Shown: positions 19,601-64,000 of the stretch, one piece after another
How the letters are laid out: the number at the start of each line of letters is the position of its first letter
Numbering within the stretch: the first letter of the stretch is position 1
Source of the DNA: Gammaproteobacteria bacterium
Lineage (GTDB): Bacteria; Pseudomonadota; Gammaproteobacteria; CAJXQU01
DNA: 64,000 bases
Assembly (NCBI GenBank): GCA_965238175.1
Contig: CBDEGZ010000003.1
Coordinates: 864,001 to 928,000 of the forward strand
Direction of reading: 5' to 3'
Position numbers and translations under genes: made by a program
Notes under the pieces: model-generated
What the model was told of the DNA's origin: nothing
What the model saw: the letters and a program-made list of their open reading frames with translations, nothing else
Database searches by the model: none

Positions 19601-19637
19601 AAATACCGGTCAACTGAAAAAATAATTGACGTTGGCC

Positions 19638-46035: not shown

Positions 46036-46077
46036 TACCTTTCCTCTAATAAATATTTAATACCGTAGGAAATATTC

Positions 46078-46492: not shown

Positions 46493-49400
46493 ATGCACCG
46501 CACATCTGCCCCAAGAACGCCACTCCCGACTTTCTTTCTCCTCAGTATTTTAATGAGTGCCAGCCAATCGGCATTTGCCGTCTGCGGCCCCTTAACCCAA
46601 GAAGCCGAAACAGGGACATTAAATGGTGATTTTGGTGTAGTCGCCGACAGCACCGCCAGCGGTGGCCAATACGTGGAAGTCCCGGCCAACAGCACCTCCA
46701 CCCAAAGCGGACTCTCCAATCACTATACCGAATATTGCTTTAATGTCACCCAAGCCGGCACCTACCGAATTGAAGGCACCGCCCGCGCATCAAACAGCTC
46801 ATACAACTCCTTCCGCGTGACCGTGAACGACAACCCAAGCAGTGGTCATGCCTGGGCCTTCAGCCACGGTAATGGCTTTGTGACCGAAGAAATAGCCGGT
46901 GGCAATGGCAGTGGCAGCCCCGAAGACTTCAGCCTAAACGCCGGTGACAACACCGTGCGCTTCTACCTGCGCGAAGACGGTGCCCAATTAGACAAAGTCC
47001 GCCTTGTCCTACAAGGTGGTAGTTCAAACAACACCGCCCCCAATGTCACCATCAGCAGCCCCAACAACGGCACCAACGTCACCCAAGGCAGCAATATAAC
47101 CTTAACCGCCACCGCCAATGACACCGAAGACGGCAGCCTAACCAACACTATCAGCTGGAGCTCAAACCACGATGGCAGCTTAGGCACCGGTGGCAGCGTG
47201 AGCCTAAGTAATTTAAGTGCAAACACCCATACGATAACCGCCAGCGTCACCGACAGTGGCGGATTGTCTGGAAACAGCACTATCAGTCTTACCGTCACCG
47301 TCACGACTACCGGTGGCAGTACCGTCACCGACATCATCGTCGACAACAGCGATAACAACACCCACACAACCGGCACCTGGTTAAACTCAAGCACAACACC
47401 AACACACGATGGAAGCAACTCTGTTTATAGCAATACCAATGGCAGCTTTCGGTGGACACCGAACATTATCACCGCCGGAGAATACACCGTCTATGCCTGG
47501 TGGACCTATTACGCAAGCCGACCTTCGGCCGCGTCCTACACCCTTCAACACAGTAGTGGCAGCAGTGTGGTGACCAAAGCCCAGAACGATCAATCACTGG
47601 GCGGACAATGGGTTGAATTAGGCACCTACACCTTCGCCGCCGGTAGTGCAGGCTATGTTGAACTCACCAGTAACACCAGCGGCAACTTCAGTGCTGATGC
47701 GATTAGATTAGTCCATAGCGGTGGTGGGAGTGAGCCGAGCGGTGGTGGCGGCAGCTGCGGCCCCTTAACCCAAGAAGCCGAAACAGGGACATTAAATGGT
47801 GATTTTGGTGTAGTCGCCGACAGCACCGCCAGCGGTGGCCAATACGTGGAAGTCCCGGCCAACAGCACCTCCACCCAAAGCGGACTCTCCAATCACTATA
47901 CCGAATATTGCTTTAATGTCACCCAAGCCGGCACCTACCGAATTGAAGGCACCGCCCGCGCATCAAACAGCTCATACAACTCCTTCCGCGTGACCGTGAA
48001 CGACAACCCAAGCAGTGGTCATGCCTGGGCCTTCAGCCACGGTAATGGCTTTGTGACCGAAGAAATAGCCGGTGGCAATGGCAGTGGCAGCCCCGAAGAC
48101 TTCAGCCTAAACGCCGGCGACAACACCGTGCGCTTCTACCTACGCGAAGACGGTGCTCAACTGGACAAAGTCCGCCTTGTCCTACAAGGTGGCGGTAACA
48201 CCGCCCCCAGTGTCACCATCAGCAACCCCAACAACGGCACCAACGTCACCCAAGGCAGCAATATAACCTTAACCGCCACCGCCAATGACACCGAAGACGG
48301 CAGCCTAACCAACACTATCAGCTGGAGCTCAAACCACGATGGCAGCTTAGGCACCGGTGGCAGCGTGAGCCTAAGTAATTTAAGTGCAAACACCCATACG
48401 ATAACCGCCAGCGTCACCGACAGTGGCGGATTGTCTGGAAACAGCACTATCAGTCTTACCGTCACCGTCACGACTACCGGTGGCAGTACCGTCACCGACA
48501 TCATCGTCGACAACAGCGATAACAACACCCACACAACCGGCACCTGGTTAAACTCAAGCACAACACCAACACACGATGGAAGCAACTCTGTTTATAGCAA
48601 TACCAATGGCAGCTTTCGGTGGACACCGAACATTATCACCGCCGGAGAATACACCGTCTATGCCTGGTGGACCTATTACGCAAGCCGACCTTCGGCCGCG
48701 TCCTACACCCTTCAACACAATGGTGGCAGCAGTGTGGTGACCAAAGCCCAGAACGATCAATCACTGGGCGGACAATGGGTTGAATTAGGCACCTACACCT
48801 TCGCCGCCGGTAGTGCAGGCTATGTTGAACTCACCAGTAACACCAGCGGTAACTTCAGTGCCGATGCAATTAAATTAGTCCATGGTGGTGGGAGTAGGCC
48901 GAGCAGTAGTAATGCTGATCCAGTAATCAGCACAATTGGTACCCAAACGGCGACGGTGGGCAGTAGCAAGACCATCAATGTGAGTGCCAGCGACAGTGAT
49001 AGTGGTGACACCTTGAGCTTTATTCTGGAGAGTGCGCCGAGTTTTGTGAGCTTGACCGACAATGGCAATCGCACCGCCACTCTCGCTGTGAGTAGCAACA
49101 GTACATCAGGTCATCACAACATTGTTGTGAGTGTACGTGATGCTAACGGTAGCAGTGACAGCGAGAGCGTTGTGTTGACAGTGAGTGGTCAAATTGCCGC
49201 AAACCTCGTTGACTGGCAAGTAGTTGGAACGAATGATTTTGATGGCGATGGCAAGTTCGACACCTTGTTACACAACTTCAGTACGGGTGAAGTTTGGATG
49301 TATCTCATGGACGCGGCTCAAGTGAGCACGAGTGCCCATGTTACCAATGTTGGCGCGAATTGGCGCGTTGCAGGAACGGGTGATTTTAATGGCGACGGCA

Positions 49401-50491
49401 AAGCGGATGTTCTGTGGCGAGAAACAATCACACATAAGACCCGAGTCTACCTGATGAATGGAACAACGGTGAGTGCAGATCAAGCGGTCAGTAATGCTAC
49501 GGAACTTCCAGAGTGGCAGATAAGAGGCGTCGATGATTTTGACGGTGATGGTAAAGCAGATATTTTGTGGCGCAATATCAATACAGAACGAAGCTGGATG
49601 TACTTAATGAATGGTTCCACCATCGTTAGTCAGGGGATTGTCGCTGATCACGGACCTAATTGGAGAATTAAAGGGACAGGTGATTTTAATGGCGATGGCA
49701 AGGCCGATATCTTATTTAGAAATACGGTATCAGACAAGAATATTATCTTCCTGATGAACGGCAACAGCATCTTGCAGCAAAGCGCAGAGCTCACGTTTGC
49801 CGCCTTGGTTTGGGAAGTTCGCGGTGTTGCTGACTTCAATGGCGATGGTAAAGCAGACATCCTGTGGCGACACAAGACGACCGGTGAAAATCGGATCTAT
49901 ATGATGAATTCCTTCACGGTAACGTCCAACCAGAGCGTGAATACAGAAGCGGATCTCGCCTGGAAGATTGTGGGTGTCGGTGATTTTAATGGCGATGGTA
50001 AATCGGATATCTATTGGCGTTATGACACGGATGGTCAGCACCGTTTGTACTTAATGAATGGCGCTAGCATCAATGCGAGTGTGCTTATCGATCAAACCCT
50101 TCCTCAGCAGACACTTACGGTTAGTGTTTCCACGCTCTCCTTTACATTAGACGAAGGGACTACTGGAACGCAGAGCATCTTTTTTACTAGCACGAGCAAT
50201 GACGGTGTGAGTAGTCTACCTGACTTAATATCGCTAGAGGGATGGTTATCGTCAACGAATGGAAGATTTTCAAATGGCGCCAAGATCACGGTTGATACGA
50301 CGGGATTAGCACTAGGCACCTACACCAGTGATGTCATCGCAATATTAGCGAATCATACAACGGCCACGATACGCGTAACGTTAGAGGTCACGCAAGCATC
50401 AGGCCTAGGCCCAGGACCCGTCCTCGTCTTTGTCGAAAACGACTGCCCTACTGAGCCGGATGTTGCGTTCCCAACGCCCCTGACACCCTAA
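46493..50491 (+). CDS. Large secreted multi-domain protein: 2x(CBM-like, Ig-like, golvesin/CBD-like), Ig-like, six FG-GAP repeats, C-terminal BACON/Ig-like domain
   Basis: Signal peptide ending AFA; QEAE..G CBM-type start, NTAP.VTI Ig starts, IIVDN domain, six DF(N/D)GDGK.D repeats; start ATG 46493 (or TTG 46487). Confidence 0.8.
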   Translation: MHRTSAPRTPLPTFFLLSILMSASQSAFAVCGPLTQEAETGTLNGDFGVVADSTASGGQYVEVPANSTSTQSGLSNHYTEYCFNVTQAGTYRIEGTARASNSSYNSFRVTVNDNPSSGHAWAFSHGNGFVTEEIAGGNGSGSPEDFSLNAGDNTVRFYLREDGAQLDKVRLVLQGGSSNNTAPNVTISSPNNGTNVTQGSNITLTATANDTEDGSLTNTISWSSNHDGSLGTGGSVSLSNLSANTHTITASVTDSGGLSGNSTISLTVTVTTTGGSTVTDIIVDNSDNNTHTTGTWLNSSTTPTHDGSNSVYSNTNGSFRWTPNIITAGEYTVYAWWTYYASRPSAASYTLQHSSGSSVVTKAQNDQSLGGQWVELGTYTFAAGSAGYVELTSNTSGNFSADAIRLVHSGGGSEPSGGGGSCGPLTQEAETGTLNGDFGVVADSTASGGQYVEVPANSTSTQSGLSNHYTEYCFNVTQAGTYRIEGTARASNSSYNSFRVTVNDNPSSGHAWAFSHGNGFVTEEIAGGNGSGSPEDFSLNAGDNTVRFYLREDGAQLDKVRLVLQGGGNTAPSVTISNPNNGTNVTQGSNITLTATANDTEDGSLTNTISWSSNHDGSLGTGGSVSLSNLSANTHTITASVTDSGGLSGNSTISLTVTVTTTGGSTVTDIIVDNSDNNTHTTGTWLNSSTTPTHDGSNSVYSNTNGSFRWTPNIITAGEYTVYAWWTYYASRPSAASYTLQHNGGSSVVTKAQNDQSLGGQWVELGTYTFAAGSAGYVELTSNTSGNFSADAIKLVHGGGSRPSSSNADPVISTIGTQTATVGSSKTINVSASDSDSGDTLSFILESAPSFVSLTDNGNRTATLAVSSNSTSGHHNIVVSVRDANGSSDSESVVLTVSGQIAANLVDWQVVGTNDFDGDGKFDTLLHNFSTGEVWMYLMDAAQVSTSAHVTNVGANWRVAGTGDFNGDGKADVLWRETITHKTRVYLMNGTTVSADQAVSNATELPEWQIRGVDDFDGDGKADILWRNINTERSWMYLMNGSTIVSQGIVADHGPNWRIKGTGDFNGDGKADILFRNTVSDKNIIFLMNGNSILQQSAELTFAALVWEVRGVADFNGDGKADILWRHKTTGENRIYMMNSFTVTSNQSVNTEADLAWKIVGVGDFNGDGKSDIYWRYDTDGQHRLYLMNGASINASVLIDQTLPQQTLTVSVSTLSFTLDEGTTGTQSIFFTSTSNDGVSSLPDLISLEGWLSSTNGRFSNGAKITVDTTGLALGTYTSDVIAILANHTTATIRVTLEVTQASGLGPGPVLVFVENDCPTEPDVAFPTPLTP
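46582..48904 (+). repeat. Near-identical intragenic tandem duplication (46582-47740 / 47755-48904)
   Basis: Both units begin CTGCGGCCCCTTAACCCAAG; offsets 1173/1167/1164 nt; differences are few and mostly in linkers. Confidence 0.95.
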
Positions 50492-50597
50492 AGGATACAC
50501 ACACAACAACCGATAAAGACAGCCGCCTCAACACATTGTGCTGAGGAAGCCTAAAGAGACACGGCACAGACGTGCCACACACGACAGGAAAATGCAG

Positions 50598-53500
50598 ATG
50601 ACACGCCAAACACAGACAGGCCTTGGAACTCACCCACGCAGAGTTAACGCTTTTGTTGCCAGCTTAATTTTCGCCTTAATGTCATTAACCACATCGGTGA
50701 TGCAAGCGGCAGTGCCGGGCCTCACCCCGGGAGAGCTGAGTGTTGGTCAGTCGGGTGCGGCAGAATACAATGTGCCGATTGCAGTGCCACCGGGCACGGC
50801 TGGCATGGCACCGATCTTATCGTTGAACTACAGCAGCAACAGCGGCAATGGGCCGCTAGGGGTCGGGTGGTCATTAAGTGGTCTATCGGCGATTACCCGC
50901 TGTCCACAGACCCTGGCACAAGATGGACAAATACGCGCAGTGAAGTTTGACACTCAGGATAAGTTTTGTCTGGATGGCCAGCGTCTAGTCGTCTCAAACG
51001 GCGGTGCCTATGGTGCCAATGGTACACAATATCGCACTGAGATGGATAACTTTAGTTTGATTACTTCGCACGGCAGTGGCTCAGGCTCACCTGTCAGTGG
51101 ACCAAACTACTTCACCGTCAAAACCAAAGCCGGTCAAACGATGTTTTACGGCACGACAACGGACTCAAACATTGACAGCCTCAACGGCGGACACGTGCGC
51201 ACCTGGGCCTTAAACCAGCTCCACGACACGGTCGGTAACTACATCAATTTCACTTATGAAGAAGATACCGACAAGCAAGATTACCGGATAGCGCGGATAG
51301 ATTACACCGGCAACGTTAATGGCAGGGGCCCCTACAGCTCGGTACGGTTTGCGTACATGCCACGGCCAAGACTGGCCAAAGGTTACATTGCAGGCCACCC
51401 CTTTGCACAACGTAAGCTGATGACAAACATCAAGACCTATGCAGGTGAGACGCAGGTGAAAGACTATCGGCTGCATTATGAGATGACCGGTGTGGTGGGG
51501 CAACCGCGCATCGAAGAAATCAAAGAGTGTGATGGTGGTGGTCAGTGTTTTAATCCGTTGACGTTTGACTGGTCGCCGGAGTTGATGGGGTATAGTGATT
51601 CGCGGAGTATTTTCCTAGTGCCGCTTAAAGAAAGCGACGGTGTACAGTGGGTCGATCATAATGGCGATGGCAACACCGATTTTTGTTATATCAACAAATA
51701 CGGTACGCCTATCTGTCATGTCTCTAATGGCACAATGCTTAATCAAACCCCCATCAGCGCCGGTTTTACCGTTAATAAAGGCTATGATGAAGGCCGTGAA
51801 TGGATCGACGTTAATGGCGATGGCAAGGCGGATTTTTGTCGCGTCGTTGGAAACTCAAGTAATCCACAGATAGCCTGTAACACATCAACTGGTAATGGGT
51901 TAAATAGCGCGTTCTCAGGTAGCCTCTCACCGGAAGGCTGGGGGCAGGGGCAGGGTCGCCGATGGGTGGATTTTAATGGTGATGGACGAGCGGATTATTG
52001 TCGAGTGACAGGATCTAACCGTGCCGCCTGTACGCTCTCAACCGGTACTGGCTTTGGTCAGACTATTATCGGCACAGGTTTAGTTTATGGAACCGGTGCG
52101 AATGGAAAAAATATCCGTGACTGGGAAGACGTCAATGGCGATGGTCTGGTGGATTTTTGTCGGACGCTGACGGATAACAGTAAGGTTTGTAACCTTTCTA
52201 CCGGTACCGGGTTTGATCCCACTCCCTATCAAACGGCAGCCCATGCAGTAAGTGGTTACTCTGGCTCCACCGCCTGGGTGGATATCAATGGCGATGGCAA
52301 TAAAGATCTCTGTGGCCTCTTCAAAGAAGGAGAAATCCAAAGCAAGACCCCCCTCGTTCCAGGCCTTTTGGAGAATCAACAATATAAATTCACCATTAGT
52401 GAAGCTCGATTTTATGCTAAGTGTAATTTGTATACCGGTACGGGTTTCGCCAACACCATTGAAAAAGAAATGTTATATGTTCCTGAGAAATCGTGTTTCA
52501 GCTATGAAGGTATTTCATGTGACATATTGCAAAGGGAACCCGAAACAAACGTTAAACTTAAGTGGAAAGACGTCAACAACGATGGGCTTGTTGATGCGTG
52601 TAGATTTGGTGCATGCGCACTCTCTAATGGCAGTGGCTTTGGGCCACTGGTGACTGGGGTAAACACACATTTTGAGAATAGCAAGACAACCGATGAGATT
52701 TTTGCCGATGTCAACGGCGATGCCATCGCCGACGCTTGTTACATTCGTTTTCGTAGTCAAAAAGACGATAATATCACTTGCAGAATCGGCAACACCCGCC
52801 CCCAGATGCGCATTATCAAAGTCACCAACAGCCTTGGTAGCCCCACCGAGATTGAATACAAACCGATGACCGACAGCAGCGTCTACAGTAAATCTGCGGA
52901 TGTGGTTCCGAAAACAACAGGCTACCCTTACCTTGACGTCCAAGCCCCGATGTACGTAGTCTCCAAGGTTAAAAATGACAATGGCCTCGGCCTCGGCATC
53001 ACCAACGACGTCGACTACACCTATGCAGGCGCCAAAGTCCACCTAAAAGGCCGTGGTTTTGCTGGTTTTCGTTGGATGTTTGCCTACAACAGAGCCCAAG
53101 GCACCTATGCGGCGACCGAGTTCCATCAAGACTTCCCACTCGCCGGCATGGTCGCCTACACACGTAGCAACCTGATTGCAGACAATAGCCTGATTAGTCA
53201 AACCAACAACACCTATAACGTTGTGGCAAGAACCGACGGCAGCTATTTTCCCTATCTTCAAACCAGTAACCAAGTCACATACGAACTCGGCGGAGCCATG
53301 GTCAAACAAACCGTTACAGACTACGTCTACGATGATTATGGTAACCCGATCTCGATTAAAGTGGCCACCGCAGGCCTCGACCAAAATACCTTCCGCACAG
53401 AAACCACCAACACCTACGACGCGTCCAGTACCGCCATCAGCAAATGGTACCTAGGCCGCTTAACCACCACCGCCGTCACGCAAACCGCCAACGGCAAGAC

Positions 53501-56500
53501 CGCAACCCGTAAATCAGCGTTTGAATACGACATCAATGGTCACGGCATGCTGATGAAAGAAATCATCGAGCCGAATAACCCCGCACTTCGATTAGAAACC
53601 GCCTATCAATACGACGCCTACGGTAACAAAACCCGCGTCACCGCCTTGGGCGGCAGCGGATCTACCGCCATCACCGCCCGCAGCACACGAACAGAATATA
53701 GCGGCGGCGGTCACAACACCGGGCAATTCCCGATCAAAATCACCAATGCGATGGGCGAATCTGAAACCCATACCTACGATGCGCGCTTTGGCGTCATGAC
53801 CAAACTCACCGGCCCCAATGGTCTGGAGACCACCTGGCAATACGATAGCTTTGGACGCAAGATAAAAGAGACACGGGCAGATAGCACGACAACCACCTTT
53901 ACTCGTAACTGGTGTGCTAAATACTGTAAGACCTCCCTGACCACCCAAAGCACTGGCAGTGCGCCTGCTCTGGAAGCCTTTGACCGACTCGGCCGAATTC
54001 AATATGTCAATACCTATGGTCTTGGAAATGATCTGTCTGGCAGCAATGTCTACACAGATCTAAATATCATTAACCCCCGCATTATCAGTGTAGCAACCCA
54101 ATACAATATTCGCGGTGAAATCAAACGAACCTCACAACCCTTCTATCTTCAGAGCCCCATTCACTGGACCAACTTCACCTACGACGCCCTCGGCCGGCCG
54201 CTAACCGAAACCGACGCCAACGGCACCACCGGTTATGAATATAAGGGACTAACATCAACCCTCACCAACCGCCTCAACCAAAAAACCACCCGGCGAGTTA
54301 ATGCGCGTGACGAATTGATCCAAACCACCGACAACCTAGGCTTCAACACCTATTACCAATATGATGCACAGGGCAACCAAACCCAAGTCACTGACCACCT
54401 CGGCAACATCACCACCATTGACTACGACGCCCGTGGTCGCAAAATCGCCATGAACGACCCCGACATGGGCGACTGGGAATACAGCTACAACGCCCTCGGA
54501 GAGCTGATAAGCCAAACCGACGCCAAAGGCCAAATCACCCGCATGGAATACGATATTCTAGGGCGCATGATCACACGCACAGACGCGGAATGTAACAGCT
54601 TCTGGGTCTATGGCTCACACAGCAACACCGGCGCAAGTGATAAGGCCATCGGCAAACTCATCTACAGCCAAAAAGGCCAGCAAGAAAAAATCTTCACTCG
54701 CTACGACAGCCTAGGCCGTCCGAATGAAATTGAAACAAGACTACAGTTTGAAGCCACCAACAAAACCTACCTCACCCAAACAAATTACGACACGCTCGGA
54801 CGAGTACAAGACATCACCTATCCGGCCAGCAACGACTACCCAACAGGCCTCGTAGTCAGAAACCACTACGACGCCAACGGCCATATGCACAAAGTCACCG
54901 GCCCCAACAACATCACCTACTGGCAAGCCACCAAACAAAATGCGCGAGGCCAGATAACCGAGTTCCGTATGGGCAATGGCGCCACCGAAACCCAACGGTC
55001 TTATAATGCAATAAACGGCCTGGTAAGCAACATCAACACCCGTAACGATAATGGAACTGACAACATTCAGAAACTTGGCTTTACCTTTGACGTCGCCGGC
55101 AACCTCAAAACCCGCCGAGGCTACGACCAAGGCAATAACACCAACCTCGAAGAAAACTTCCATTATGACGGCATCAATCGCCTCATCGTGTCACAGCTTG
55201 GCGATGGGTCACATCGAAAGCAATACGACTACGACGCGCTCGGCAACCTCACCTTCAAAACCGGGGTTGGCACCTACGACTACACCAACGGCCGTCCACA
55301 TGCGGTGAGCAACACCTCGATTGGGAGTAAACAATACCAATACGACGACAATGGCAACATGATGAGCGGTGATGGTCGAACCATCACCTGGTCACCGTAC
55401 AACAAACCGATCAAAATTGAGAAAGACGGTGTACAAACCGCCACCCAATTTGACTACGGCGCGAACCGCAACCGCATTCGGCAGGTAAATGATCAAAAAA
55501 TCATTTATTACGTCAACGGCCTGTTTGAGCAGGAATACGATGGCACCACCACCACCGACGTGCACTACATCAAAGCCGGTGGCAGCACCATTGCGATTGT
55601 TAAATCCAAAGGCACCAACGACCCACTAGAAACCCGCTACCTGCACAAAGACCACTTAGGCGGCATTGAGTCGATTACAAATGAACAAGGTAACCTAGTC
55701 CAACAGTTTAGCTATGACCCGCATGGCAAACGCCGGGCGGTTAACTGGACCGATGATGACAATGTCAGCAACCCGGCTATTTATCAATTTGACACCCAAC
55801 GTGGCTTTACCGGGCATGAACACCTGGACGAGGTGGGGCTAATTCACATGAACGGCCGAGTCTATGACCCGACGCTTGGACGGTTTATCAGTGCAGATCC
55901 GTTTGTGCAGTTCCCGGACAATGGCCAGTCATTGAACCGCTATTCGTATGTGTTGAACAATCCACTCAGTTATTCTGACCCCAGTGGGTTCTTTTTTAAG
56001 AAGTTGTTTAGGAATAAGATTTTTAGGATTGTGGCGAGTATTGCAGTTAACTTTTTACCCGGGTTTCAAGCACTTGGGCCTTTATTGAATGCTGCACTGA
56101 AAGGGTTTGCGGCAAGTTTTATAGGCAGCGGCGGTGATTTAAGATCAGGGTTTATTGGTGCAGTGACGATGGGCGCATTCCAGAAACTGGGAGGTGCCGG
56201 TGCAATTGCAGGGAAAATTGGAGGTTTTACAGGTGATGTTGTCGAGGTCGTGGCTCATGGTGTTGTTGGAGGTGTCTCTGCCATCGCCCGTGGTGGTAGG
56301 TTTATCCAGGGGTTCTTGCCTGCCGGGTTGAGTAGTGCAACGAGCTTGTCTGGTTTCTTAAGGAACTTAGATGATGTGACGCAAGGTTTTGCGCAGGCTG
56401 TTATTGGTGGAACCGCTTCTGTGTTGGGTGGCGGTAAGTTTGCTAATGGCGCGGTGACGAGTGCGTTTGTTTATGCGGCGGGGAGGGTTGGGCAGGCGAG

Positions 56501-56999
56501 AGCGGGAGCCGGTGGGGGGGCTGGGGCTGGGGGGGATGCTGGTGGGTTTGCTCGGGGGAAGAGAGCTGGTCAGGGCGTGAAATCTGCTGGAGTGGAAGTT
56601 GATAATAATCTATTATTAAGGAAACTTGGTGAGGTAAATGGGAAAGGTGATGTTCTTATTGTTGATGCAGGTACAGAAATCTTTATTGAACCATATGGCA
56701 ATAGTTTAGGTGGAGAAGGTTTTTCATATAACATCAATTACCATTATTATGACGCAGTTGGTAATATAATCCCACAAATGGCTCCTCTCAATGCCTTTGG
56801 GAGAGGAATTCCTGCATTCACCGGACAGGCATTTGTTGGTCAAAATGGAGGTGGTCCTGATTTGCCATTTAGTGCTCCAAATGTGGGGGGGAATAACTAT
56901 AACGGGAGTGTAAGATGGTCAATCTCAATACCTAGACAAGCCTCGTCACATGATGCAAGCTTGGGAGTGAATTTGAGAGTTTACGAGGTAATAAGGTGA
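50598..56999 (+). CDS. RHS/YD-repeat polymorphic toxin with signal peptide, SpvB-like N-terminus, FG-GAP propeller, RHS core and variable C-terminus
   Basis: G.LSV..SGAAEY.VPI.VPPG..GM.P.LSL.YSS..GNG.LG.GWSL (SpvB/TcB-like), YD repeats, RGFTGHE..HMNGRVYDP..GRF..DP..NRYSYV.NNP...DPSG; ATG 50598 with AGGAA RBS. Confidence 0.93.
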   Translation: MTRQTQTGLGTHPRRVNAFVASLIFALMSLTTSVMQAAVPGLTPGELSVGQSGAAEYNVPIAVPPGTAGMAPILSLNYSSNSGNGPLGVGWSLSGLSAITRCPQTLAQDGQIRAVKFDTQDKFCLDGQRLVVSNGGAYGANGTQYRTEMDNFSLITSHGSGSGSPVSGPNYFTVKTKAGQTMFYGTTTDSNIDSLNGGHVRTWALNQLHDTVGNYINFTYEEDTDKQDYRIARIDYTGNVNGRGPYSSVRFAYMPRPRLAKGYIAGHPFAQRKLMTNIKTYAGETQVKDYRLHYEMTGVVGQPRIEEIKECDGGGQCFNPLTFDWSPELMGYSDSRSIFLVPLKESDGVQWVDHNGDGNTDFCYINKYGTPICHVSNGTMLNQTPISAGFTVNKGYDEGREWIDVNGDGKADFCRVVGNSSNPQIACNTSTGNGLNSAFSGSLSPEGWGQGQGRRWVDFNGDGRADYCRVTGSNRAACTLSTGTGFGQTIIGTGLVYGTGANGKNIRDWEDVNGDGLVDFCRTLTDNSKVCNLSTGTGFDPTPYQTAAHAVSGYSGSTAWVDINGDGNKDLCGLFKEGEIQSKTPLVPGLLENQQYKFTISEARFYAKCNLYTGTGFANTIEKEMLYVPEKSCFSYEGISCDILQREPETNVKLKWKDVNNDGLVDACRFGACALSNGSGFGPLVTGVNTHFENSKTTDEIFADVNGDAIADACYIRFRSQKDDNITCRIGNTRPQMRIIKVTNSLGSPTEIEYKPMTDSSVYSKSADVVPKTTGYPYLDVQAPMYVVSKVKNDNGLGLGITNDVDYTYAGAKVHLKGRGFAGFRWMFAYNRAQGTYAATEFHQDFPLAGMVAYTRSNLIADNSLISQTNNTYNVVARTDGSYFPYLQTSNQVTYELGGAMVKQTVTDYVYDDYGNPISIKVATAGLDQNTFRTETTNTYDASSTAISKWYLGRLTTTAVTQTANGKTATRKSAFEYDINGHGMLMKEIIEPNNPALRLETAYQYDAYGNKTRVTALGGSGSTAITARSTRTEYSGGGHNTGQFPIKITNAMGESETHTYDARFGVMTKLTGPNGLETTWQYDSFGRKIKETRADSTTTTFTRNWCAKYCKTSLTTQSTGSAPALEAFDRLGRIQYVNTYGLGNDLSGSNVYTDLNIINPRIISVATQYNIRGEIKRTSQPFYLQSPIHWTNFTYDALGRPLTETDANGTTGYEYKGLTSTLTNRLNQKTTRRVNARDELIQTTDNLGFNTYYQYDAQGNQTQVTDHLGNITTIDYDARGRKIAMNDPDMGDWEYSYNALGELISQTDAKGQITRMEYDILGRMITRTDAECNSFWVYGSHSNTGASDKAIGKLIYSQKGQQEKIFTRYDSLGRPNEIETRLQFEATNKTYLTQTNYDTLGRVQDITYPASNDYPTGLVVRNHYDANGHMHKVTGPNNITYWQATKQNARGQITEFRMGNGATETQRSYNAINGLVSNINTRNDNGTDNIQKLGFTFDVAGNLKTRRGYDQGNNTNLEENFHYDGINRLIVSQLGDGSHRKQYDYDALGNLTFKTGVGTYDYTNGRPHAVSNTSIGSKQYQYDDNGNMMSGDGRTITWSPYNKPIKIEKDGVQTATQFDYGANRNRIRQVNDQKIIYYVNGLFEQEYDGTTTTDVHYIKAGGSTIAIVKSKGTNDPLETRYLHKDHLGGIESITNEQGNLVQQFSYDPHGKRRAVNWTDDDNVSNPAIYQFDTQRGFTGHEHLDEVGLIHMNGRVYDPTLGRFISADPFVQFPDNGQSLNRYSYVLNNPLSYSDPSGFFFKKLFRNKIFRIVASIAVNFLPGFQALGPLLNAALKGFAASFIGSGGDLRSGFIGAVTMGAFQKLGGAGAIAGKIGGFTGDVVEVVAHGVVGGVSAIARGGRFIQGFLPAGLSSATSLSGFLRNLDDVTQGFAQAVIGGTASVLGGGKFANGAVTSAFVYAAGRVGQARAGAGGGAGAGGDAGGFARGKRAGQGVKSAGVEVDNNLLLRKLGEVNGKGDVLIVDAGTEIFIEPYGNSLGGEGFSYNINYHYYDAVGNIIPQMAPLNAFGRGIPAFTGQAFVGQNGGGPDLPFSAPNVGGNNYNGSVRWSISIPRQASSHDASLGVNLRVYEVIR

Positions 57000-57439
57000 A
57001 AAATCTAAATATTGGCACTTTATCATTTTGGGTTGTTATTTTATTAATCACAGGTTGTAGTAAACAGCAGGAAAATAAGGAGCCCAGAAATCTGACATAT
57101 GGAAAGTATTCGTTGCAAGAATGTGTTGTGCAAGTAAATCTAAATTGGGAGGATGATATTGGGAGTGCTGAGAAGTATGAAGCAATTAAGAATATAGGGC
57201 ATCAAATAGTTTTAGCAATGAATTCTAGAGAATTTCCATTATTTGGTTCAAATACAACTCGCTCTATGAATTACTATCTTTTCTACTACGCTGATAAGTG
57301 CGAAAAAAGAGAAAGGTATACTGAGAGTATAATTAATGATTTTATACTTAATAAAGTAACTAATTTTCCTCCGTATAAAATTCTAACTAAACCTATTAAG
57401 TTTGAAAATGGTGCAGAACCAAGAGGTTGGTGGAAATAA
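56996..57439 (+). CDS. Putative immunity lipoprotein for RHS tip 1
   Basis: GTGA overlap with the toxin stop, AT-rich, lipobox LITG-C. Confidence 0.75.
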   Translation: MKNLNIGTLSFWVVILLITGCSKQQENKEPRNLTYGKYSLQECVVQVNLNWEDDIGSAEKYEAIKNIGHQIVLAMNSREFPLFGSNTTRSMNYYLFYYADKCEKRERYTESIINDFILNKVTNFPPYKILTKPIKFENGAEPRGWWK

Positions 57440-57562
57440 AATCAAGGGGTCAGCCAGCTTGATTATCTCGATAAGCCTTACTTTTCCTATCTCCACCGTG
57501 CGAGGTTAATTTTGTCGGTCTCGATAATTTTGCAGCCATTTGTGTATGAAAACCCGCCTTAC
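57438..57562 (-). repeat. Inverted 125-bp copy of the Y1 transposase 3' end and right TIR
   Basis: Reverse complement of 61845-61969 with 3 mismatches. Confidence 0.93.
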
Positions 57563-57582
57563 TGAATTAAATAGGGTCAGAC

Positions 57583-57708
57583 TAAGGTAGCCCAGGTATT
57601 CCGGACACTTCAAAAGAGAGACAATACTTTTAGAGGTGAGCCATGTCAAAACGTCAAAGTTATACCCGAGAATTCAAGTTAGAGGCCGTGCGACTGCTTG
57701 AGCAGAAA
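57583..57708 (+). pseudogene. IS3-family (IS600-like) left end with truncated orfA
   Basis: TAAGGTAGCCCAGGTATTCCGGACAC resembles the IS600 IRL as I recall it; ATG 57643 MSKRQSYTREFKLEAVRLLEQ. Confidence 0.75.
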
Positions 57709-57718
57709 ATAAGTGGGG

Positions 57719-57802
57719 TCAGCAACTGTCTTGAGCCAGCTGCTCATTCCAGGGTTTATCATCTCTCACCATCGCGTTAATCATGACCAATAATTTGCGC
57801 AT
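57719..57802 (-). pseudogene. IS110-family transposase C-terminal remnant
   Basis: Minus-strand MRKLLVMINAMVRDDKPWNEQLAQDSC*, typical of IS110 C-termini. Confidence 0.72.
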
Positions 57803-57835
57803 GAGAAATCAAGGGGTCAGCCAGCTTGATTATCT

Positions 57836-60685
57836 CAATACAATATTCGCGGTGAAATCAAACGAACCTCACAACCCTTCTATCTTCAGAGCCCCATTCA
57901 CTGGACCAACTTCACCTACGACGCCCTCGGCCGGCCGCTAACCGAAACCGACGCCAACGGCACCACCGGTTATGAATATAAGGGACTAACATCAACCCTC
58001 ACCAACCGCCTCAACCAAAAAACCACCCGGCGAGTTAATGCGCGTGACGAATTGATCCAAACCACCGACAACCTAGGCTTCAACACCTATTACCAATATG
58101 ATGCACAGGGCAACCAAACCCAAGTCACTGACCACCTCGGCAACATCACCACCATTGACTACGACGCCCGTGGTCGCAAAATCGCCATGAACGACCCCGA
58201 CATGGGCGACTGGGAATACAGCTACAACGCCCTCGGAGAGCTGATAAGCCAAACCGACGCCAAAGGCCAAATCACCCGCATGGAATACGATATTCTAGGG
58301 CGCATGATCACACGCACAGACGCGGAATGTAACAGCTTCTGGGTCTATGGCTCACACAGCAACACCGGCGCAAGTGATAAGGCCATCGGCAAACTCATCT
58401 ACAGCCAAAAAGGCCAGCAAGAAAAAATCTTCACTCGCTACGACAGCCTAGGCCGTCCGAATGAAATTGAAACAAGACTACAGTTTGAAGCCACCAACAA
58501 AACCTACCTCACCCAAACAAATTACGACACGCTCGGACGAGTACAAGACATCACCTATCCGGCCAGCAACGACTACCCAACAGGCCTCGTAGTCAGAAAC
58601 CACTACGACGCCAACGGCCATATGCACAAAGTCACCGGCCCCAACAACATCACCTACTGGCAAGCCACCAAACAAAATGCGCGAGGCCAGATAACCGAGT
58701 TCCGTATGGGCAATGGCGCCACCGAAACCCAACGGTCTTATAATGCAATAAACGGCCTGGTAAGCAACATCAACACCCGTAACGATAATGGAACTGACAA
58801 CATTCAGAAACTTGGCTTTACCTTTGACGTCGCCGGCAACCTCAAAACCCGCCGAGGCTACGACCAAGGCAATAACACCAACCTCGAAGAAAACTTCCAT
58901 TATGACGGCATCAATCGCCTCATCGTGTCACAGCTTGGCGATGGGTCACATCGAAAGCAATACGACTACGACGCGCTCGGCAACCTCACCTTCAAAACCG
59001 GGGTTGGCACCTACGACTACACCAACGGCCGTCCACATGCGGTGAGCAACACCTCGATTGGGAGTAAACAATACCAATACGACGACAATGGCAACATGAT
59101 GAGCGGTGATGGTCGAACCATCACCTGGTCACCGTACAACAAACCGATCAAAATTGAGAAAGACGGTGTACAAACCGCCACCCAATTTGACTACGGCGCG
59201 AACCGCAACCGTATTCGGCAGGTAAATGATCAAAAAATCATTTATTACATCAACGGCCTGTATGAACAAGAGTTTGATGGCACCACCACCACCGACGTGC
59301 ACTACATCAAAGCCGGTGGCAGCACCATTGCGATTGTTAAATCCAAAAAATCTAAAGGCACCAACGACCCACTAGAAACCCGCTACCTGCACAAAGACCA
59401 CTTAGGCGGCATTGAGTCGATTACAAATGAACAAGGTAACCTAGTCCAACAGTTTAGCTATGACCCGCATGGCAAACGCCGGGCGGTTAACTGGACCGAT
59501 GATGACAATGTCAGCAACCCGGCTATTTATCAATTTGACACCCAACGTGGCTTTACCGGGCATGAACACCTGGACGAGGTGGGGCTAATTCACATGAACG
59601 GCCGAGTCTATGACCCGACGCTTGGACGGTTTATCAGTGCAGATCCGTTTATACAAGCACCGGAAAATGGCCAGTCGTTGAATCGCTATTCGTATGTGTT
59701 GAACAATCCACTCAGTTATTCTGACCCCAGTGGGTTCTTTTTTAAGAAATTGTTTAAGAATAAGATTTTTAGGATTGTGGCTCAGGTAGTGCTTGCCTAC
59801 TTCACTGCTGGTCAGTCATTACTGTTTGAACAAGCTGTTGCCTTAGGGTTTGTGAGTGGGTTTGTATTCAGTGGCGGTGATTTTAAGGCCGGGTTTATTG
59901 GAGGGTTAACGGCCGGGGCGTTTCATGGAGTGGGGACATATTTTAAGGGGTTGGCTGGAAAAATAAGCGCTGGAACGCTCAAGGCCTTGAAGGTTGTCGC
60001 CCACGGTGTCGTGGGAGGTGTGTCTCAGGTTGCAAGCGGCGGTAAGTTTGCGGCAGGGTTCTTGTCGGCGGGAGTTACTCAGGCCGCTTCGAATATCGAA
60101 GGTTTGTTTACTGAGGGGGAAGGTATTACACTCGGCAATACGGTGAAAGCGGCGGTCATTGGTGGGACAGCGTCGGTGATTGGTGGGGGTAAGTTTGCAA
60201 ATGGGGCCATTACGGGGGCGTTTTCTAGGTTGTTTAATGATGATGCGGCAGGTCATAGTGGGGAAATAAAGAAAAGTGTTTTCTCAACAGAAGCATCATG
60301 TACTGTTCCTAGCCAATGCGAGCGTGAAAAATTCTACGGTAGGGAGCGAGTAAATAGATACGAAACATTACCGATGTTGACGTCACCATCAAGACCTGGA
60401 AAACCTACTATTATTGATGGCATTGTCTTGGCGATAGATGGAGTCACTCAATCATTTAGTTCTCATTATATAGATACAGTAAAGGTGACTTATACAGAAC
60501 GTCTATATGATGTAACAGAAACACAGTGGGCAGACGGTGGTGAACTAATCGGTCAAAGGACTTATCAGTCATGGTTTCCTGGAGAACGTGTTGGAGATGG
60601 TTTTACACGAAACGTGATTAATAGTGAATGGCAAGGTCTTGTTCATTCCAGTGACAGAAGGAATAAATATAATGTTGATAATTAA
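57836..60685 (+). pseudogene. Orphan 5'-truncated RHS module with an alternative C-terminal toxin tip
   Basis: Frame open from the duplication start (in-frame TGA at 57827); lacks signal, SpvB and propeller parts; diverges from RHS1 after IFRIVA. Confidence 0.88.
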
Positions 60686-60689
60686 GCAT

Positions 60690-61148
60690 ATGAAAAAATT
60701 AAATATTTATATTACTATTTTTAGTTTTATAGTCATTGTAATCGCTGGTTGTGATGGCTCTTCAATAGAAGATAATGAAAGTTTCAAATTTATAGTATTA
60801 AAAGAATGTGAAGAACATGTCATAAGCTATCTATCATCTATATCTGAGGATATGGGGTTATCAGTTGAATATTTTCCTTTTGATTTCCAAGTTCCCTCAC
60901 ACTCAGAGGTTGTAGGGTATATTGAATTATCCAGTAAATATGAAGGAAAAGAAGAACTAGAAACATATGCAAATGCAGTATGGTTAGATTGTTATCCTAC
61001 GGCTACTGAGCGAATTTCTAGGGGTAATCCTGATTATCCCTCTGAGGTTTTTAGGTCTGTTGAATTAGGTGAAAAATTTGGTGATAAGTCTCGTTATTTT
61101 CAGGTGGGTAAAGATGAGGTTATTATTCATTTTAGACAGAATAAATGA
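60690..61148 (+). CDS. Putative immunity lipoprotein for RHS tip 2
   Basis: ATG 4 nt after the orphan stop, AT-rich, MKKLNIYITIFSFIVIVIAG-C lipobox. Confidence 0.75.
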   Translation: MKKLNIYITIFSFIVIVIAGCDGSSIEDNESFKFIVLKECEEHVISYLSSISEDMGLSVEYFPFDFQVPSHSEVVGYIELSSKYEGKEELETYANAVWLDCYPTATERISRGNPDYPSEVFRSVELGEKFGDKSRYFQVGKDEVIIHFRQNK

Positions 61149-61190
61149 TCGGAGATCGGTCAGGGTCAGGCTATCTTTTATCAATTAAAT

Positions 61191-61969
61191 AAAACCAAGG
61201 GGTCAGCCATCTTGATATTTCACTTTGAAGCAAGTAATCTACCCAAATGGCGCGCCTACCAAGAATAGTTATCCCAGACCAAGCACTGCATATCATGCAC
61301 AGAGGCAATAATCGTCAAGTCATCTTTGAAACAGAAGAAGATTTTATAAGGCTTAAGGATGATATTAACCACACCTTATTAAAAGCAGACTGTCAGCTTC
61401 ATGCCTATGTGATAATGAATAACCACCTACACTTACTACTTACACCCAAAGATAAAGAGCAGCTCAAAGTCTTTATGCAATCGTTGAGTAATCGCTATGT
61501 GCGTTACTTCAATGCTGTACGAAAACGAACCGGCACTCTTTGGGAAGGACGCTATAAATCTTGCTTAATCGACAGTGACAACTACCTGTTCACGCTCTAT
61601 AAATACATCGAAATGAACCCGGTGAAAGCCAATATTGTTGATAACTTAGAAGCCTATCGATGGTCGAGTTATCACCACAATGCGTTAGGAAAGAAAGACA
61701 AGCTCATCGCTACCCATCCACTCTATAAGAAATTAGGAAAGACATTTGATCAACAAACAGCTGCCTACAAGGCTTTGTTTGAAGGGTTAGACCTATCGCA
61801 AGATGTTGACATTACCCAAGCGACTCAAAAGGGTGAGGTTTTTGGTAAGGCGGGTTTTCATACACAAATGGCTGCAAAATTATCGAGACCGACAAAATTA
61901 ACCTCGCACGGTGGAGATAGGAAAAGTGAGGCTTATCGAGATAATCATGCTGGCTGACCCCTTGGTTTT
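61191..61969 (+). mobile_element. TIR-bounded HUH Y1 transposase element (RAYT/TIRYT-like), 779 bp
   Basis: 26-bp inverted repeats with 19 bp perfect (AAAACCAAGGGGTCAGCCA) at 61191-61216 and 61944-61969; no target duplication seen. Confidence 0.85.
61247..61957 (+). CDS. REP-associated-type tyrosine (HUH Y1) transposase
   Basis: MARLPR, HIMHRGNNRQVIF, MNNHLHLL (HUH), GTLWEGRYKS, YIEMNPVKA (catalytic Tyr), YRWSSY. Confidence 0.93.
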   Translation: MARLPRIVIPDQALHIMHRGNNRQVIFETEEDFIRLKDDINHTLLKADCQLHAYVIMNNHLHLLLTPKDKEQLKVFMQSLSNRYVRYFNAVRKRTGTLWEGRYKSCLIDSDNYLFTLYKYIEMNPVKANIVDNLEAYRWSSYHHNALGKKDKLIATHPLYKKLGKTFDQQTAAYKALFEGLDLSQDVDITQATQKGEVFGKAGFHTQMAAKLSRPTKLTSHGGDRKSEAYRDNHAG

Positions 61970-62285
61970 CGAGGAATTAATTAATAACTATGGCTGGTTT
62001 TCAGCTAATAGACATGACTTTAAAGGTGTTGAAAACATCTTGACCTTTGTAGCAATTTTACTACCGAAGTGGAGTCCAAAAGATATATCACTCATTGAAT
62101 CACAGGGAGATTACATTAACGATTTTGGTCATGATGTATATGTGTTTGATATTGATAACTTTGAAACACAAGCGCAAATAGAGGAAACCTTAATTGGTTT
62201 CCCTAAGGTAAGTCAGACTCCTATAGTTGGGGTGTACGAGGATGGAATTCTTAAAAGCTTTGTATGTGGAATGGAAGAAAAATAA
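61970..62285 (+). pseudogene. 5'-truncated gene fragment, possibly thioredoxin-like fold
   Basis: Open frame runs from the right TIR; ..ILLPKWSP..YVFDID..TPIVGVYEDG..; no own start or RBS evident. Confidence 0.45.
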
Positions 62286-62411
62286 AATGGCAAAAGAAAT
62301 AAGTGGGCGGCTTCAACTCCAAAGCGCGCCACTAGCCGTGATTAAAAAGACATGACTTTCCGTCTTGCTAGAATGAGATTGTCGAGATCTTATTCTATTG
62401 GAGAAAAAGCC

Positions 62412-62644
62412 ATGCCTTATCATCATTTTAGCGCAAAAGAACGTCACACCTTAATGTATTTATTGTACTGGGGATTAAGCTATCGAGACATTGGACGACG
62501 CCTCAATCGTCACCACAGTACCATTGCCCGAGAAGTCACACGCAATGGTCGCCTACGAAACTTATCTTACTGTAACGAATTTGCTGATAGACAAGCCTGT
62601 CTTCGTAAGACACAGGCTCGCCATTATCGAAAACGTGGGCCGAG
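62412..62644 (+). pseudogene. IS30-family transposase N-terminal remnant
   Basis: MPYHHFSAKER..SYRDIGRRLNRHHSTIAREVTRN HTH; truncated at the mini-element; IS left end probably near 62306. Confidence 0.85.
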
Positions 62645-62721
62645 CAGGGTCAGGCCTTACATTTCACATAAAATAGAAACATAGAAGCTGTAGAAAATGT
62701 CAATTGTAAGGCCTGACCCTG
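62645..62721. repeat. 77-bp non-autonomous mini-element with GGGTCAG-core inverted repeats
   Basis: Perfect 17-bp IR CAGGGTCAGGCCTTACA / TGTAAGGCCTGACCCTG, extendable to 25 bp with 2 mismatches. Confidence 0.85.
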
Positions 62722-63010
62722 ATGAATCCTAATAGATCATAACCTCCTAATTCACCAAATCCTGCTTGCGCCCCAGCAGCATAAAACCCAGCAAGAAAAT
62801 CTTCACCGGAAAGTTCAGCAGAAACACCCCCGATCGCCCCATGAGCGAGTACTTTTGTAAATCCTTCGGTGTTATGGACCCCATTAAATGCACTAGTAGT
62901 GGCGTATGATATCGCTGCAGATTTAGCAATATCACCAAGACTACCCCCATTCACTGCCGTATTAAAAGCCGAAGAAGCTGCCGCGCATTGAGCGGCATAT
63001 GGACCGCCCC
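62722..63010 (-). pseudogene. Inverted fragment of a third RHS C-terminal (Gly/Ala-rich pre-toxin) region
   Basis: AVNGGSLGDIAK..KVLAHGAIGGVSAELSGEDFLAGF parallels VVAHGVVGGVS..GG.F..GF in both RHS C-termini. Confidence 0.7.
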
Positions 63011-63112
63011 AAAATATATTTCCAAATTCATGTTGCTGAGGCGTGGTGATGTAGCTAGAATTCCCGTTCTTTTGTTAAACCCACATTTCGGGCTTGGAAA
63101 CCACATAGTTAC

Positions 63113-64000
63113 ATGACGAAAATTATCAATAATATCGAGCCTTTGGTTCTTAACATCTCTGGGTTTGAGTACGCGGATCTTTATGATCCTTTGCGTCTTG
63201 AAGATCTTTCGGATCAATTTAATCGTAGCGTTGAAAAGCTTGATCCTGAGCTTGCTCGAGCATTTACAGAGTATCGAGATTGTCAGGGAGAAGGTATGTC
63301 GCCCCAGGCAATTTCTGAGCTGCTGGTTCGCATGGCACCATACGTGGGTACTTTTATCGCAAAGTTATTCAACATTGTCAGTGAACAAGCACAACAGAAG
63401 GCTGAAATTCTTGCAGATGTTGAGAGTATTTTTGTGCTTAAAAAGGAAGTCTTGGCTAAACTCGTCGCTAAATTCCGTGGTGAGGATTGTTCTGAATGGG
63501 ATATTGCAGATGTCAAAAATAATCTCGATCGTTTGACGGAAATCGCTTTCCCGGACACCTACGCAGCATATGTAAAAGATGGTGATCAAGAACGCGCAAT
63601 TGGACGTGTTGGTGCTGTTCTCGGCAAGCTTGCGAATCATTTCAAATTGATTGCTAAGGGTAAAGAAGGTGACTACGTTGGTGCTGATAAAGAGGTTTCG
63701 AGATTAAGAAATGTCGTTTTTTCCGATCAGATTTTTTCACGTGCAGCTGAACTTGATAATGACGCTGAATTTATAGATACGCTGTTGGAGGTAGTGCAGC
63801 GTTGGTGCTTTATCGCTCAAAATGATGAAGAATTAAAACAAGAAGTTGCCAGTTGGGTACTTTTTAAAACGCCGCATAAAACTGATTTTGATCATCTTGT
63901 TCATCATTTAACGATCGAAAAAGACGGTTACACCGTTTGGATGGGACCGGAGCAACGTCGCCGTCGCCGCGATGGGTTTGGCCTAACTGATCAGCGTTTC
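63113..64000 (+). CDS. Large FAD-dependent pyridine nucleotide-disulfide oxidoreductase (GltD-related), N-terminal part, runs off the window
   Basis: Manual translation MTKIINNIEPLVLNISGFEYADLYDP...WVLFKTPHKTDFDHLV...RRRRDGFGLTD, open to the window end; catalytic motifs not yet reached. Confidence 0.65.
   Translation, partial: MTKIINNIEPLVLNISGFEYADLYDPLRLEDLSDQFNRSVEKLDPELARAFTEYRDCQGEGMSPQAISELLVRMAPYVGTFIAKLFNIVSEQAQQKAEILADVESIFVLKKEVLAKLVAKFRGEDCSEWDIADVKNNLDRLTEIAFPDTYAAYVKDGDQERAIGRVGAVLGKLANHFKLIAKGKEGDYVGADKEVSRLRNVVFSDQIFSRAAELDNDAEFIDTLLEVVQRWCFIAQNDEELKQEVASWVLFKTPHKTDFDHLVHHLTIEKDGYTVWMGPEQRRRRRDGFGLTDQRF

Follow-up and report, generated by a model that had tools for sequence, protein, structure and literature searches.

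The window analysed here, a 64,000-nucleotide stretch of a Gammaproteobacteria bacterium (assembly GCA_965238175.1, contig CBDEGZ010000003.1; C3:864001-928000 in the coordinates used below), contains the 3' part of an rhs (SpvB/FG-GAP/YD-repeat) polymorphic-toxin locus, whose toxin and immunity functions are putative. The spaces between its cassette modules are occupied by elements of the TIRYT (or TIRtron) type, in which inverted repeats flank a gene for a Y1/HUH transposase, and by solo copies of their end units. The linkage of such elements to the 3' side of rhs genes is real and oriented, and it recurs across genera. The best explanation as a whole, to which we assign a probability of roughly 0.55, is that TIRYT units serve as border repeats while toxin tips are exchanged by recombination through the rhs core.

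A preliminary description of this sequence had drawn attention to the motif GGGTCAG/CTGACCC, placing eleven copies in about 6.8 kb and only two in the earlier part of the window. An exact-match scan of both strands bore this out, returning 13 copies, 11 of them within 55975-62719 (Table 1). All of the coordinates first given were correct to within one base, five (57446, 57715, 57813, 61199 and 22620) being off by one. In 100 shuffles of the window the motif occurred 4.04 times on average (standard deviation 1.99, largest 9). The whole genome, 3.35 Mb in three contigs, contains 156 copies in 3,352,323 bases; at the density of the rest of the genome some 0.3 copies would be expected in the 6.75-kb stretch in which 11 were observed. 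The genome-wide count that had been proposed as a check therefore finds the motif enriched at this rhs locus.

Every genomic copy was listed with its context and the region was compared with the whole genome. The eleven copies fall into four groups. Four (57447, 57814, 61200 and 61954) belong to units of what we term the A-type element, and two or three are B-type (62647, 62713 and, uncertainly, 61163). Two (57574 and 57716) are F-type-like tips, and two (55975 and 59721) lie in rhs coding sequence. TIRYT families, solo units and insertion sequence (IS) debris account for eight or nine of the eleven; the remaining two fall by coincidence in coding sequence where the rhs core ends. The earlier proposal that the motif forms the core of the terminal inverted repeats of Y1 transposases was borne out.

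The A-type element is a TIRYT/TIRtron, probably of TnpA_REP-like subclass 2.1. It is complete in the window, where its ends read AACCAAGGGGTCAGCCA..., and is present in a copy 99.9% identical at C3:631058-631833. Its protein matches Pfam PF01797 (Y1_Tnp, 1.6e-13). With NCBIfam NF047646, the repetitive extragenic palindrome (REP)-associated tyrosine transposase (RAYT) family, it scores 73.5 bits (E 1.6e-20), short of the curated cut-off of 80. Residues H60, H62 and Y120 are invariant among 18 aligned sequences (alignment A1). The profile from this alignment matches TnpA_REP 4ER8 at 2.2e-07 and ISDra2 TnpA at 4.8e-04; a search of solved structures with the single A-type sequence gave no match, and the profile was needed. 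More than 7,800 relatives exist, the nearest being 62-75% identical. A C-terminal extension of about 110 residues is conserved in the alignment, and Pfam shows no helix-turn-helix (HTH) family there. The enzyme is intact and appears TnpA_REP-like.

Both A-type ends contain GGGGTCAG. In 45 of 53 scanned related loci the Y1 gene is flanked by an inverted repeat formed from the A-type-like end unit, a hairpin of about 28 nt. In nearer relatives this unit reads ATCAAGGGGTCAGCCAGCTTGAT, with a 6-7-bp stem and GGGGTCAG in the loop. IS200/IS605 elements are without terminal inverted repeats, have differing subterminal hairpins and often carry tnpB, whereas the 776 bp of the A-type element have clear inverted ends and no second gene. 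The solo unit at 57806-57835 folds with a free energy (dG) of -8.8 kcal/mol (z -4.3; none of 200 shuffles as good), and the hairpin of the 57438-57562 fragment, which is 97.6% identical to 61969-61845, with -5.7 kcal/mol (z -2.9). The ends of the complete copy are degenerate and show no such fold. A DNA search for the 776-bp element in 41 genomes found it only in G000, besides one weak 67% stretch.

The positions of the copies relative to the immunity genes, the orphan rhs gene and the IS fragments had been described correctly. The stop codon of putative immunity gene 1 occupies 57437-57439 and a motif copy follows at 57447; that of putative immunity gene 2 occupies 61146-61148, with a copy at 61163. 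The copy at 57814 lies 22 nt ahead of the start of orphan rhs homology at 57836, and a further copy stands at or beside an end of each of the IS3, IS110 and IS30 fragments and the inverted rhs remnant. The claim that the copies mark junctions fails for two of them. Copies 55975 and 59721 are the Ser-Asp-Pro codons (tCT GAC CCc) of ...LSYSDPSGF, seen twice because the core is duplicated, and are not junctions because homology between the main and orphan genes continues for about 55 nt beyond the motif. The core-end copy was rejected as an enzyme target on the same grounds. Among other rhs genes, CTGACCC falls on the Thr-Asp-Pro codons in one (L090) and not in another (L085); its presence at the core end therefore follows codon choice.

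Oriented linkage of TIRYT elements to rhs cassettes

The genome has three rhs loci: that of the window, locus B (C3:615-632 kb) and the fragmentary locus C (C3:3178.7-3189 kb). An A-type element is present in each, the three being 99.3-99.9% identical and having different flanks. The genome's 10 A-type and 5 F-type units sit without exception in these loci; of its roughly 16 B-type units, only 3 do. The immunity gene of locus B is followed, within about 10 nt, first by a truncated and next by a solo left unit, and an rhs N-terminal fragment stands between the solo left unit and the element. A 3.1-kb rhs fragment in locus C has a B-type end at one border and the A-type left tip at the other, and the local A-type element retains 413 bp together with exactly 28 nt of its right end.

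Co-occurrence was then assessed across the class, in a sample of 300 genomes of which 133 contained Y1 relatives and 108 Rhs core domains. The cross-match covered 150 of the 289 matches to Y1 and 150 of the 330 to Rhs; among the matches listed, a Y1 lies within 5 kb of an Rhs core end in at least 7 further genomes. From the rhs side, the top-scoring Rhs core end per genome was taken from 62 genomes, G000 and G146 being excluded. Within 4 kb downstream, 9-11 of these 62 core ends are followed by Y1 sequence, a gene in 5 cases and a fragment in 6, of which two are weak; about 0.06 would be expected in the 200 kb examined, given 289 matches in some 900 Mb class-wide. About one sixth of the rhs loci sampled in the class thus show the linkage and, when only core ends having at least 2 kb of flank are considered, 10 of 47 do. 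The downstream Y1 is spaced 0.8-2 kb past the core end and is co-oriented with rhs in 10 of 11 cases; co-orientation was found in 13 of the 16 rhs/Y1 pairs examined. From the Y1 side, an rhs gene lay within the fetched flank of 6 of 80 Y1 loci, with Y1 always 3' of the module formed by the rhs C-terminal region (CT) and immunity gene. The co-occurrence of Y1 and rhs, put forward earlier as something to be checked, is thereby upheld, and end units stand at cassette borders in other genomes as they do here.

Two genomes illustrate the arrangement, both with end units after each immunity gene. In G113, the main rhs gene is followed by small genes, a unit 33 nt on, two open reading frames (ORFs), a complete element and an orphan rhs core whose start lies only a few bases from the right tip of that element. 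The orphan is followed by small genes, a unit about 50 nt on, solo units with Y1 fragments, and a second complete element; 8 of the 15 units of the genome lie in this one rhs locus. In G070, three orphans are each separated by a 224-bp derivative of element ends in either orientation, and the common module (spacer and core fragment) starts directly after ...GGGGTCAGGCTAG. Of its 54 end units, 19 are found no more than 5 kb from Rhs core ends, in a zone covering about 3% of the genome, and 6 of 10 rhs clusters have units 1-3 kb downstream. Unit strand tracks rhs strand and not chromosome position. The derivative is non-autonomous and, in L102+L103 reverse-complemented, occurs in opposite orientations at 19549-19772 and 21708-21931, with the flanking module direct.

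Recurrent breakpoints and rival readings

The distance from the tip is 27, 28 and 29 nt for three independent breakpoints, which fall 4-7 nt beyond the foot of the hairpin: one in the solo left unit of locus B, one at the internal deletion of locus C, and one between the solo right unit and the orphan core at 57835/57836. A second recurrent breakpoint falls just after GGGGTCAG. Tandem partial units, consisting of a tip, GGGGTCA(G) and up to three further bases ahead of a full unit, were found in locus B and in about 20 loci from different genomes. The fetched loci, 1.72 Mb in all, gave 53 same-strand motif pairs 10-45 nt apart and none for the reversed motif; because these loci had been chosen for holding Y1 or rhs, this count speaks for activity of the units and not for movement of cassettes. 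The recurrence of breakpoints at fixed positions in the unit suggests cutting and joining there.

Any role of the elements in cassette turnover is one that we infer. In the explanation given most weight here, TIRYT elements would home to, or travel with, rhs-CT/immunity cassettes, and at cassette borders they would most likely be portable repeats and possibly nick sites. The expressed toxin would be exchanged by homologous recombination through the conserved rhs core, the process known as C-terminal displacement. The 1,946-bp, 98.6% identical core repeat of the window suffices for RecA-type exchange of toxin tips, and fits the recombination model set out in a passage of PMC2935791. The preliminary description had instead proposed capture, inversion and deletion of cassettes driven by the enzyme; nothing observed here shows this, and the core repeat is sufficient for exchange. 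A circle composed of core fragment, CT, immunity gene and element, integrating via the core, would give the order seen in G113. Such a circle alone does not give the window's junction at the inner edge of the solo unit.

Several observations weigh against the border-repeat explanation. In the window it is the inner edge of a solo unit that meets the orphan core, in G113 the outer tip, so that no single uniform event fits both. An rhs gene stands beside only 6 of 80 Y1 loci, and beside at least 8 of 146 among the matches listed; most TIRYT genes are thus not next to rhs, and the elements are not dedicated to it. Most B-type units lie elsewhere than in rhs loci, and three such sites that were inspected had no recognisable toxin genes alongside. 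Debris of IS3, IS110 and IS30 lies in the window too, which is what a mere graveyard of mobile DNA would contain. The sampled genomes are related to unknown degrees, which makes the enrichment figures rough, and the class-wide tallies include the unpublished genome G146, on which no co-location claim rests.

It is rather unlikely, in our judgement, that the enzyme itself drives the process in the manner of an integron. Y1 would then cut single-stranded DNA at the hairpin units and rejoin it, freeing circles of rhs core fragment, CT and immunity gene, which would re-enter by strand transfer at another unit or by rhs-core recombination; capture, deletion and reshuffling would all be driven by the enzyme. 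The three independent breakpoints speak for this, as do tandem partial units cut right after GGGGTCA(G) in many genomes (53 pairs against none), but the preselection of those loci deprives the pair count of meaning for cassette movement. The abutment of rhs fragments with arbitrary core breakpoints on unit edges in loci B, C and G113, and the units after each immunity gene in G070 and G113, point the same way. However, the units at orphan borders are not oriented alike in the window and in G113, and the spacer element of G070 is found in both orientations, the outcome to be expected of independent insertion. Neither an excised circle nor an empty site or strain difference was observed; four joints in public contigs (two runs, one sample) match the paralogous loci B and C or the core repeat. 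From the literature, this reading can draw on the circular intermediate proposed in PMC2935791, the origin of which is left open in the passage concerned, and on the report of the same enzyme subclass beside variable prochlorosin genes in a section of a preprint (bioRxiv 10.1101/2020.03.09.984088). Conversely, no assay of any TIRYT was found in the portions of the literature searched.

The broader proposition, that TIRYT enzymes and GGGGTCAG hairpin units together make up an integron-like system that is widespread and serves polymorphic toxins of the Rhs and perhaps other kinds, is doubtful to a similar degree. If it were true, nicks at post-immunity units would free single-stranded circles of core fragment, toxin tip and immunity gene, and these would displace the expressed tip through rhs-core recombination. 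The circular intermediate postulated in 2009 for C-terminal displacement would thereby be supplied.

Equally tentative is the view that the association has no meaning beyond survival, the 3' flank of rhs being dispensable, horizontally acquired DNA in which any mobile element persists. TIRYT debris would accumulate there like IS3, IS110, IS30 and IS4, and the common motif would reflect family kinship only. The fragments of these four other IS families in the same few kilobases agree with this, as do the G+C content of about 50% in the rhs genes against 40% genome-wide, the scatter of B-type units elsewhere, and the match of the public-contig joints to paralogous loci only. Not predicted, however, are the co-orientation with rhs (13 of 16 and 10 of 11), the tight spacing of 0.8-2 kb past the core end, the position of units 0-50 nt from immunity stop codons in several genomes, and the confinement of all 15 A- and F-type units to rhs loci. 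Finally, the idea that local base composition makes the motif frequent has nothing in its favour beyond the higher G+C of rhs genes and is refuted by the shuffles, none of 100 matching the observed count of 13, by the genome-wide copy listing and by the genome comparison, nine copies lying within longer repeats common to other loci.

Other features of the window and its sister loci

Table 1 Features of the rhs region and copies of the motif, in window coordinates.
Feature	Position	Strand	Remarks
Main rhs-type polymorphic toxin gene	50538..56999	+	SpvB, FG-GAP, RHS repeats; core, then CT1
Putative immunity gene 1	56996..57439	+	147 aa; lipoprotein-like N-terminus; ORF; label from position only
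A-type right-end fragment, 125 bp	57438..57562	+	tip overlaps immunity-1 stop; canonical hairpin unit, motif 57447
F-type-like tip (aattaaataGGGTCAGact)	57563..57583	+	motif 57574; fused to IS3 fragment
IS3-family 5' fragment (orfA start)	57584..57704	+	97.7% identical to full copy C3:2070709-2070838
IS110-family 3' end (last 27 codons)	57705..57802	-	stop inside CTGACCCC; abuts TIR-like (terminal inverted repeat-like) tip, motif 57716
Solo A-type right-end hairpin unit, 29-30 nt	57806..57835	+	motif 57814; orphan rhs core joined to inner edge
Orphan rhs	57836..60685	+	1,946 bp of core, then different C-terminal region CT2
Putative immunity gene 2	60690..61148	+	lipoprotein-like N-terminus; ORF 60624-61148, in-frame ATG at 60690
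Short B-type-like remnant (caGGGTCAGGC)	61155..61175	+	14 nt past immunity-2 stop; 11-nt match to B-type end; assignment uncertain
Complete A-type TIRYT element (TIRtron)	61192..61967	+	776 bp; motifs 61200, 61954
A-type left unit	61192-61220
A-type Y1/HUH gene	61247-61957		236 aa
A-type right unit	61939-61967
IS30-family 5' fragment, HTH part only	62306..62637	+	99.1% identical to 4 full copies; HTH_38 5.7e-15
B-type mini-element, 80 bp, palindromic	62642..62721	.	two ends of B-type TIRYT; motifs 62647, 62713
Inverted remnant of rhs C-terminal region	62722..63217	-	ends at mini-element; ORFs
Motif copies in cluster	55975(-), 57447(+), 57574(+), 57716(+), 57814(+), 59721(-), 61163(+), 61200(+), 61954(-), 62647(+), 62713(-)
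Motif copies outside cluster	22621 and 45304		exact-match scan of window

The B-type family has a 950-bp parent at C3:971098-972048, encoding a 284-aa Y1 protein (Pfam 8e-13). Its ends carry aGGGTCAG, one mismatch from GGGG[AT][CG]A[CG]. The 80-bp mini-element of the window has copies 95-96% identical at C3:3039641 and C3:2528103 and folds with a dG of -20.4 kcal/mol (z -7.0). The short stretch at 61155-61175 may be a B-type remnant or a chance match. The F-type-like tips were judged against F-type units at C3:3182614 and 3183393, and are similar to the upstream end of the third Y1 gene, a truncated one lying in another rhs locus (Pfam 7.3e-08). The earlier notion of a single resident enzyme working on one site does not hold, three TIRYT families being involved and one intact gene being present in the window. 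In a second patch of mobile DNA (C3:964001-976000, L003), the intact B-type element is accompanied by three more B-type ends, two IS481-like copies, an FG-GAP fragment and a number of ORFs.

The IS3 fragment at the F-type-like tip is without its first ~10 nt, the intact IS3 left end reading TGGTCACTTTAAGGTAGCCC; orfA of the full copy matches HTH_Tnp_1 at 2.8e-13. The 27-aa IS110 remnant has no match in Pfam and is labelled from a paralogue that is 72% identical over 25 aa and matches Transposase_20 (2.7e-05). The 60-bp junction of IS110 and tip recurs in locus C (C3:3183411-3183470), and the paralogue just named, a third IS110 copy, also ends in TGACCCGTTGAT, like an end unit. All three IS110 3' ends (C3:3170582-3170905, equivalent to L167 2582-2905; window 57705-57802; L002 9414-9470) finish in (C/T)TGACCC and are followed by end-unit-like sequence. 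Thus, IS110 elements seem to target the conserved core of TIRYT ends. REP units, likewise, can serve as targets of IS110-type elements. The preliminary description had read the IS junctions as joins made by the enzyme; a simpler account is that IS3, IS110 and IS30 copies, and IS4 in the sister locus C, landed in or beside hairpin units and were then truncated.

Two further observations concern the A-type family. A 124-aa frame (61911-62285) without a family match starts inside the A-type right end and runs beyond it; it may be a gene from which the insertion displaced the 5' end. In the 412-aa database protein P0005, a ShlB-type POTRA domain (PF08479, two-partner-secretion transporter) is fused to a Y1 protein lacking its first ~20 residues; this suggests that an element inserted in a TpsB/CdiB-like gene, adjoining another polymorphic-toxin system.

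The main rhs gene matches RHS_repeat (7.4e-34), SpvB (1.8e-18) and FG-GAP_3 (4.9e-13) in Pfam. It shows YD/RHS repeats, a core end with the PxxxxDPxG motif (...NNPLSYSDPSGF, with SDPSGF at residue 1812 and motif copy 55975 within it), a variable C-terminus and a small downstream gene. Further downstream lies a fragment that, as in an orphan cassette, retains part of the core and has another C-terminus: positions 57836-59781, including motif copy 59721, are 98.6% identical to 54099-56035 of the main gene and diverge after that. TIGR03696 has 8 matches in this genome. The inverted remnant has a weak DUF637 match (7.8e-04), and DUF637 is likewise matched by CT1 and CT2. In Pfam and NCBIfam, immunity genes 1 and 2 had no match, and the cassettes gave no match to toxin/immunity families.

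A frameshift in the main rhs gene was considered and dropped because locus B has the same two-gene layout. The locus B rhs gene (L001 6424-16419, equivalent to C3:620423-630419) is a single 3,331-aa frame with two Rhs core domains, the second beginning where the window gene diverges, at the position equivalent to 56503. Upstream of rhs, a segment of about 1.16 kb in the Golvesin_C/FG-GAP/TcdB_midN gene is tandemly doubled (window 46582-48910), both copies mapping to the single locus B segment C3:617626-618795. The G+C content is about 50% over the two large toxin-locus genes (window 46001-60000) against about 40% elsewhere and genome-wide; the CT and immunity parts return to about 40%.

Relation to known systems

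RAYT-like genes flanked by inverted repeats were named TIRYT, or TIRtrons, by Di Nocera et al. (2013, PMC3733652), whose description of them gives the motif GGGGWSAS and end units that are single, dimeric or clustered. A passage of Quentin et al. (2018, PMC6006769) gives GGGG[AT][CG]A[CG] and places most TIRYT in subclass 2.1. The preliminary description had named these elements and their motif correctly; the word STIR, which it had attached to them, is absent from PMC3733652. The A-type element shares with them a Y1/HUH protein of ~236 aa with a C-terminal extension, inverted repeats with GGGG[AT][CG]A[CG], and solo, dimeric or clustered units. It differs in that three families occur in one genome and are concentrated in rhs loci. 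The passages of PMC3733652 and PMC6006769 compared make no mention of toxin-cassette linkage, of the hairpin nature of the unit or of fixed breakpoints; the supplementary lists of both papers lie outside the comparison and may already include some of the loci. The REP/RAYT system has a related enzyme (TnpA_REP, PDB 4ER8) and short extragenic hairpin units, often placed right after stop codons. Here, however, the units number tens and not hundreds, are clustered rather than dispersed, and form terminal inverted repeats around the gene of an element present in near-identical copies.

For rhs genes, sections of Jackson et al. (2009, PMC2935791) describe C-terminal displacement, with excision and insertion via a circular intermediate, and ask where the circle comes from. 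The word transposase is absent from that paper and occurs once, in an unrelated sense, in the text of PMC3482391. As in such orphan arrays, the window has a main gene and a downstream orphan with a core fragment, an alternative CT and an immunity gene, together with a long core repeat. Here and in at least two other genomes, however, Y1 elements or end units separate the modules. In Salmonella, orphans are activated by recombination, as Koskiniemi et al. reportedly described in 2014.

The idea has its closest precedent in the preprint bioRxiv 10.1101/2020.03.09.984088, parts of which describe subclass-2.1 TnpA_REP genes beside hypervariable prochlorosin (procA) genes in marine picocyanobacteria; its authors later stated that they had seen no strong evidence for or against causality. 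The likeness extends to genes with conserved 5' and hypervariable 3' parts, interspersed transposase fragments and a proposed diversifying recombination. In that system, however, the prochlorosin and transposase genes face each other and no inverted repeats were found, whereas the genes are co-oriented here and have clear end units; toxin family and phylum are also different. Integrons resemble the arrangement in having a promoterless-looking cassette array, a structured, single-strand recombination-site-like element after each cassette and a recombinase at one end. They differ in that the enzyme here is HUH/Y1 rather than a tyrosine integrase, the cassettes bring along a homology arm in the form of the rhs core fragment, and site-specific excision is hypothetical.

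The mobilome preprint 10.1101/2024.07.17.603846 mentions both rhs and RAYT and draws no link between them. A literature search, with subscription journals and supplements mostly outside it, found no paper tying Rhs to RAYT, TIRYT or IS200-type enzymes. The oriented association of TIRYT with rhs cassette borders is thus apparently undescribed. The acquisition and swapping of rhs tips have so far been explained, as a section of PMC2935791 sets out, only by homologous recombination through a hypothetical circle. The arrangement described here may bear on how toxin/immunity cassettes are exchanged, and its oriented, recurrent linkage offers a testable handle both on rhs tip exchange and on the role of the TIRYT/RAYT-like 'domesticated' transposases.

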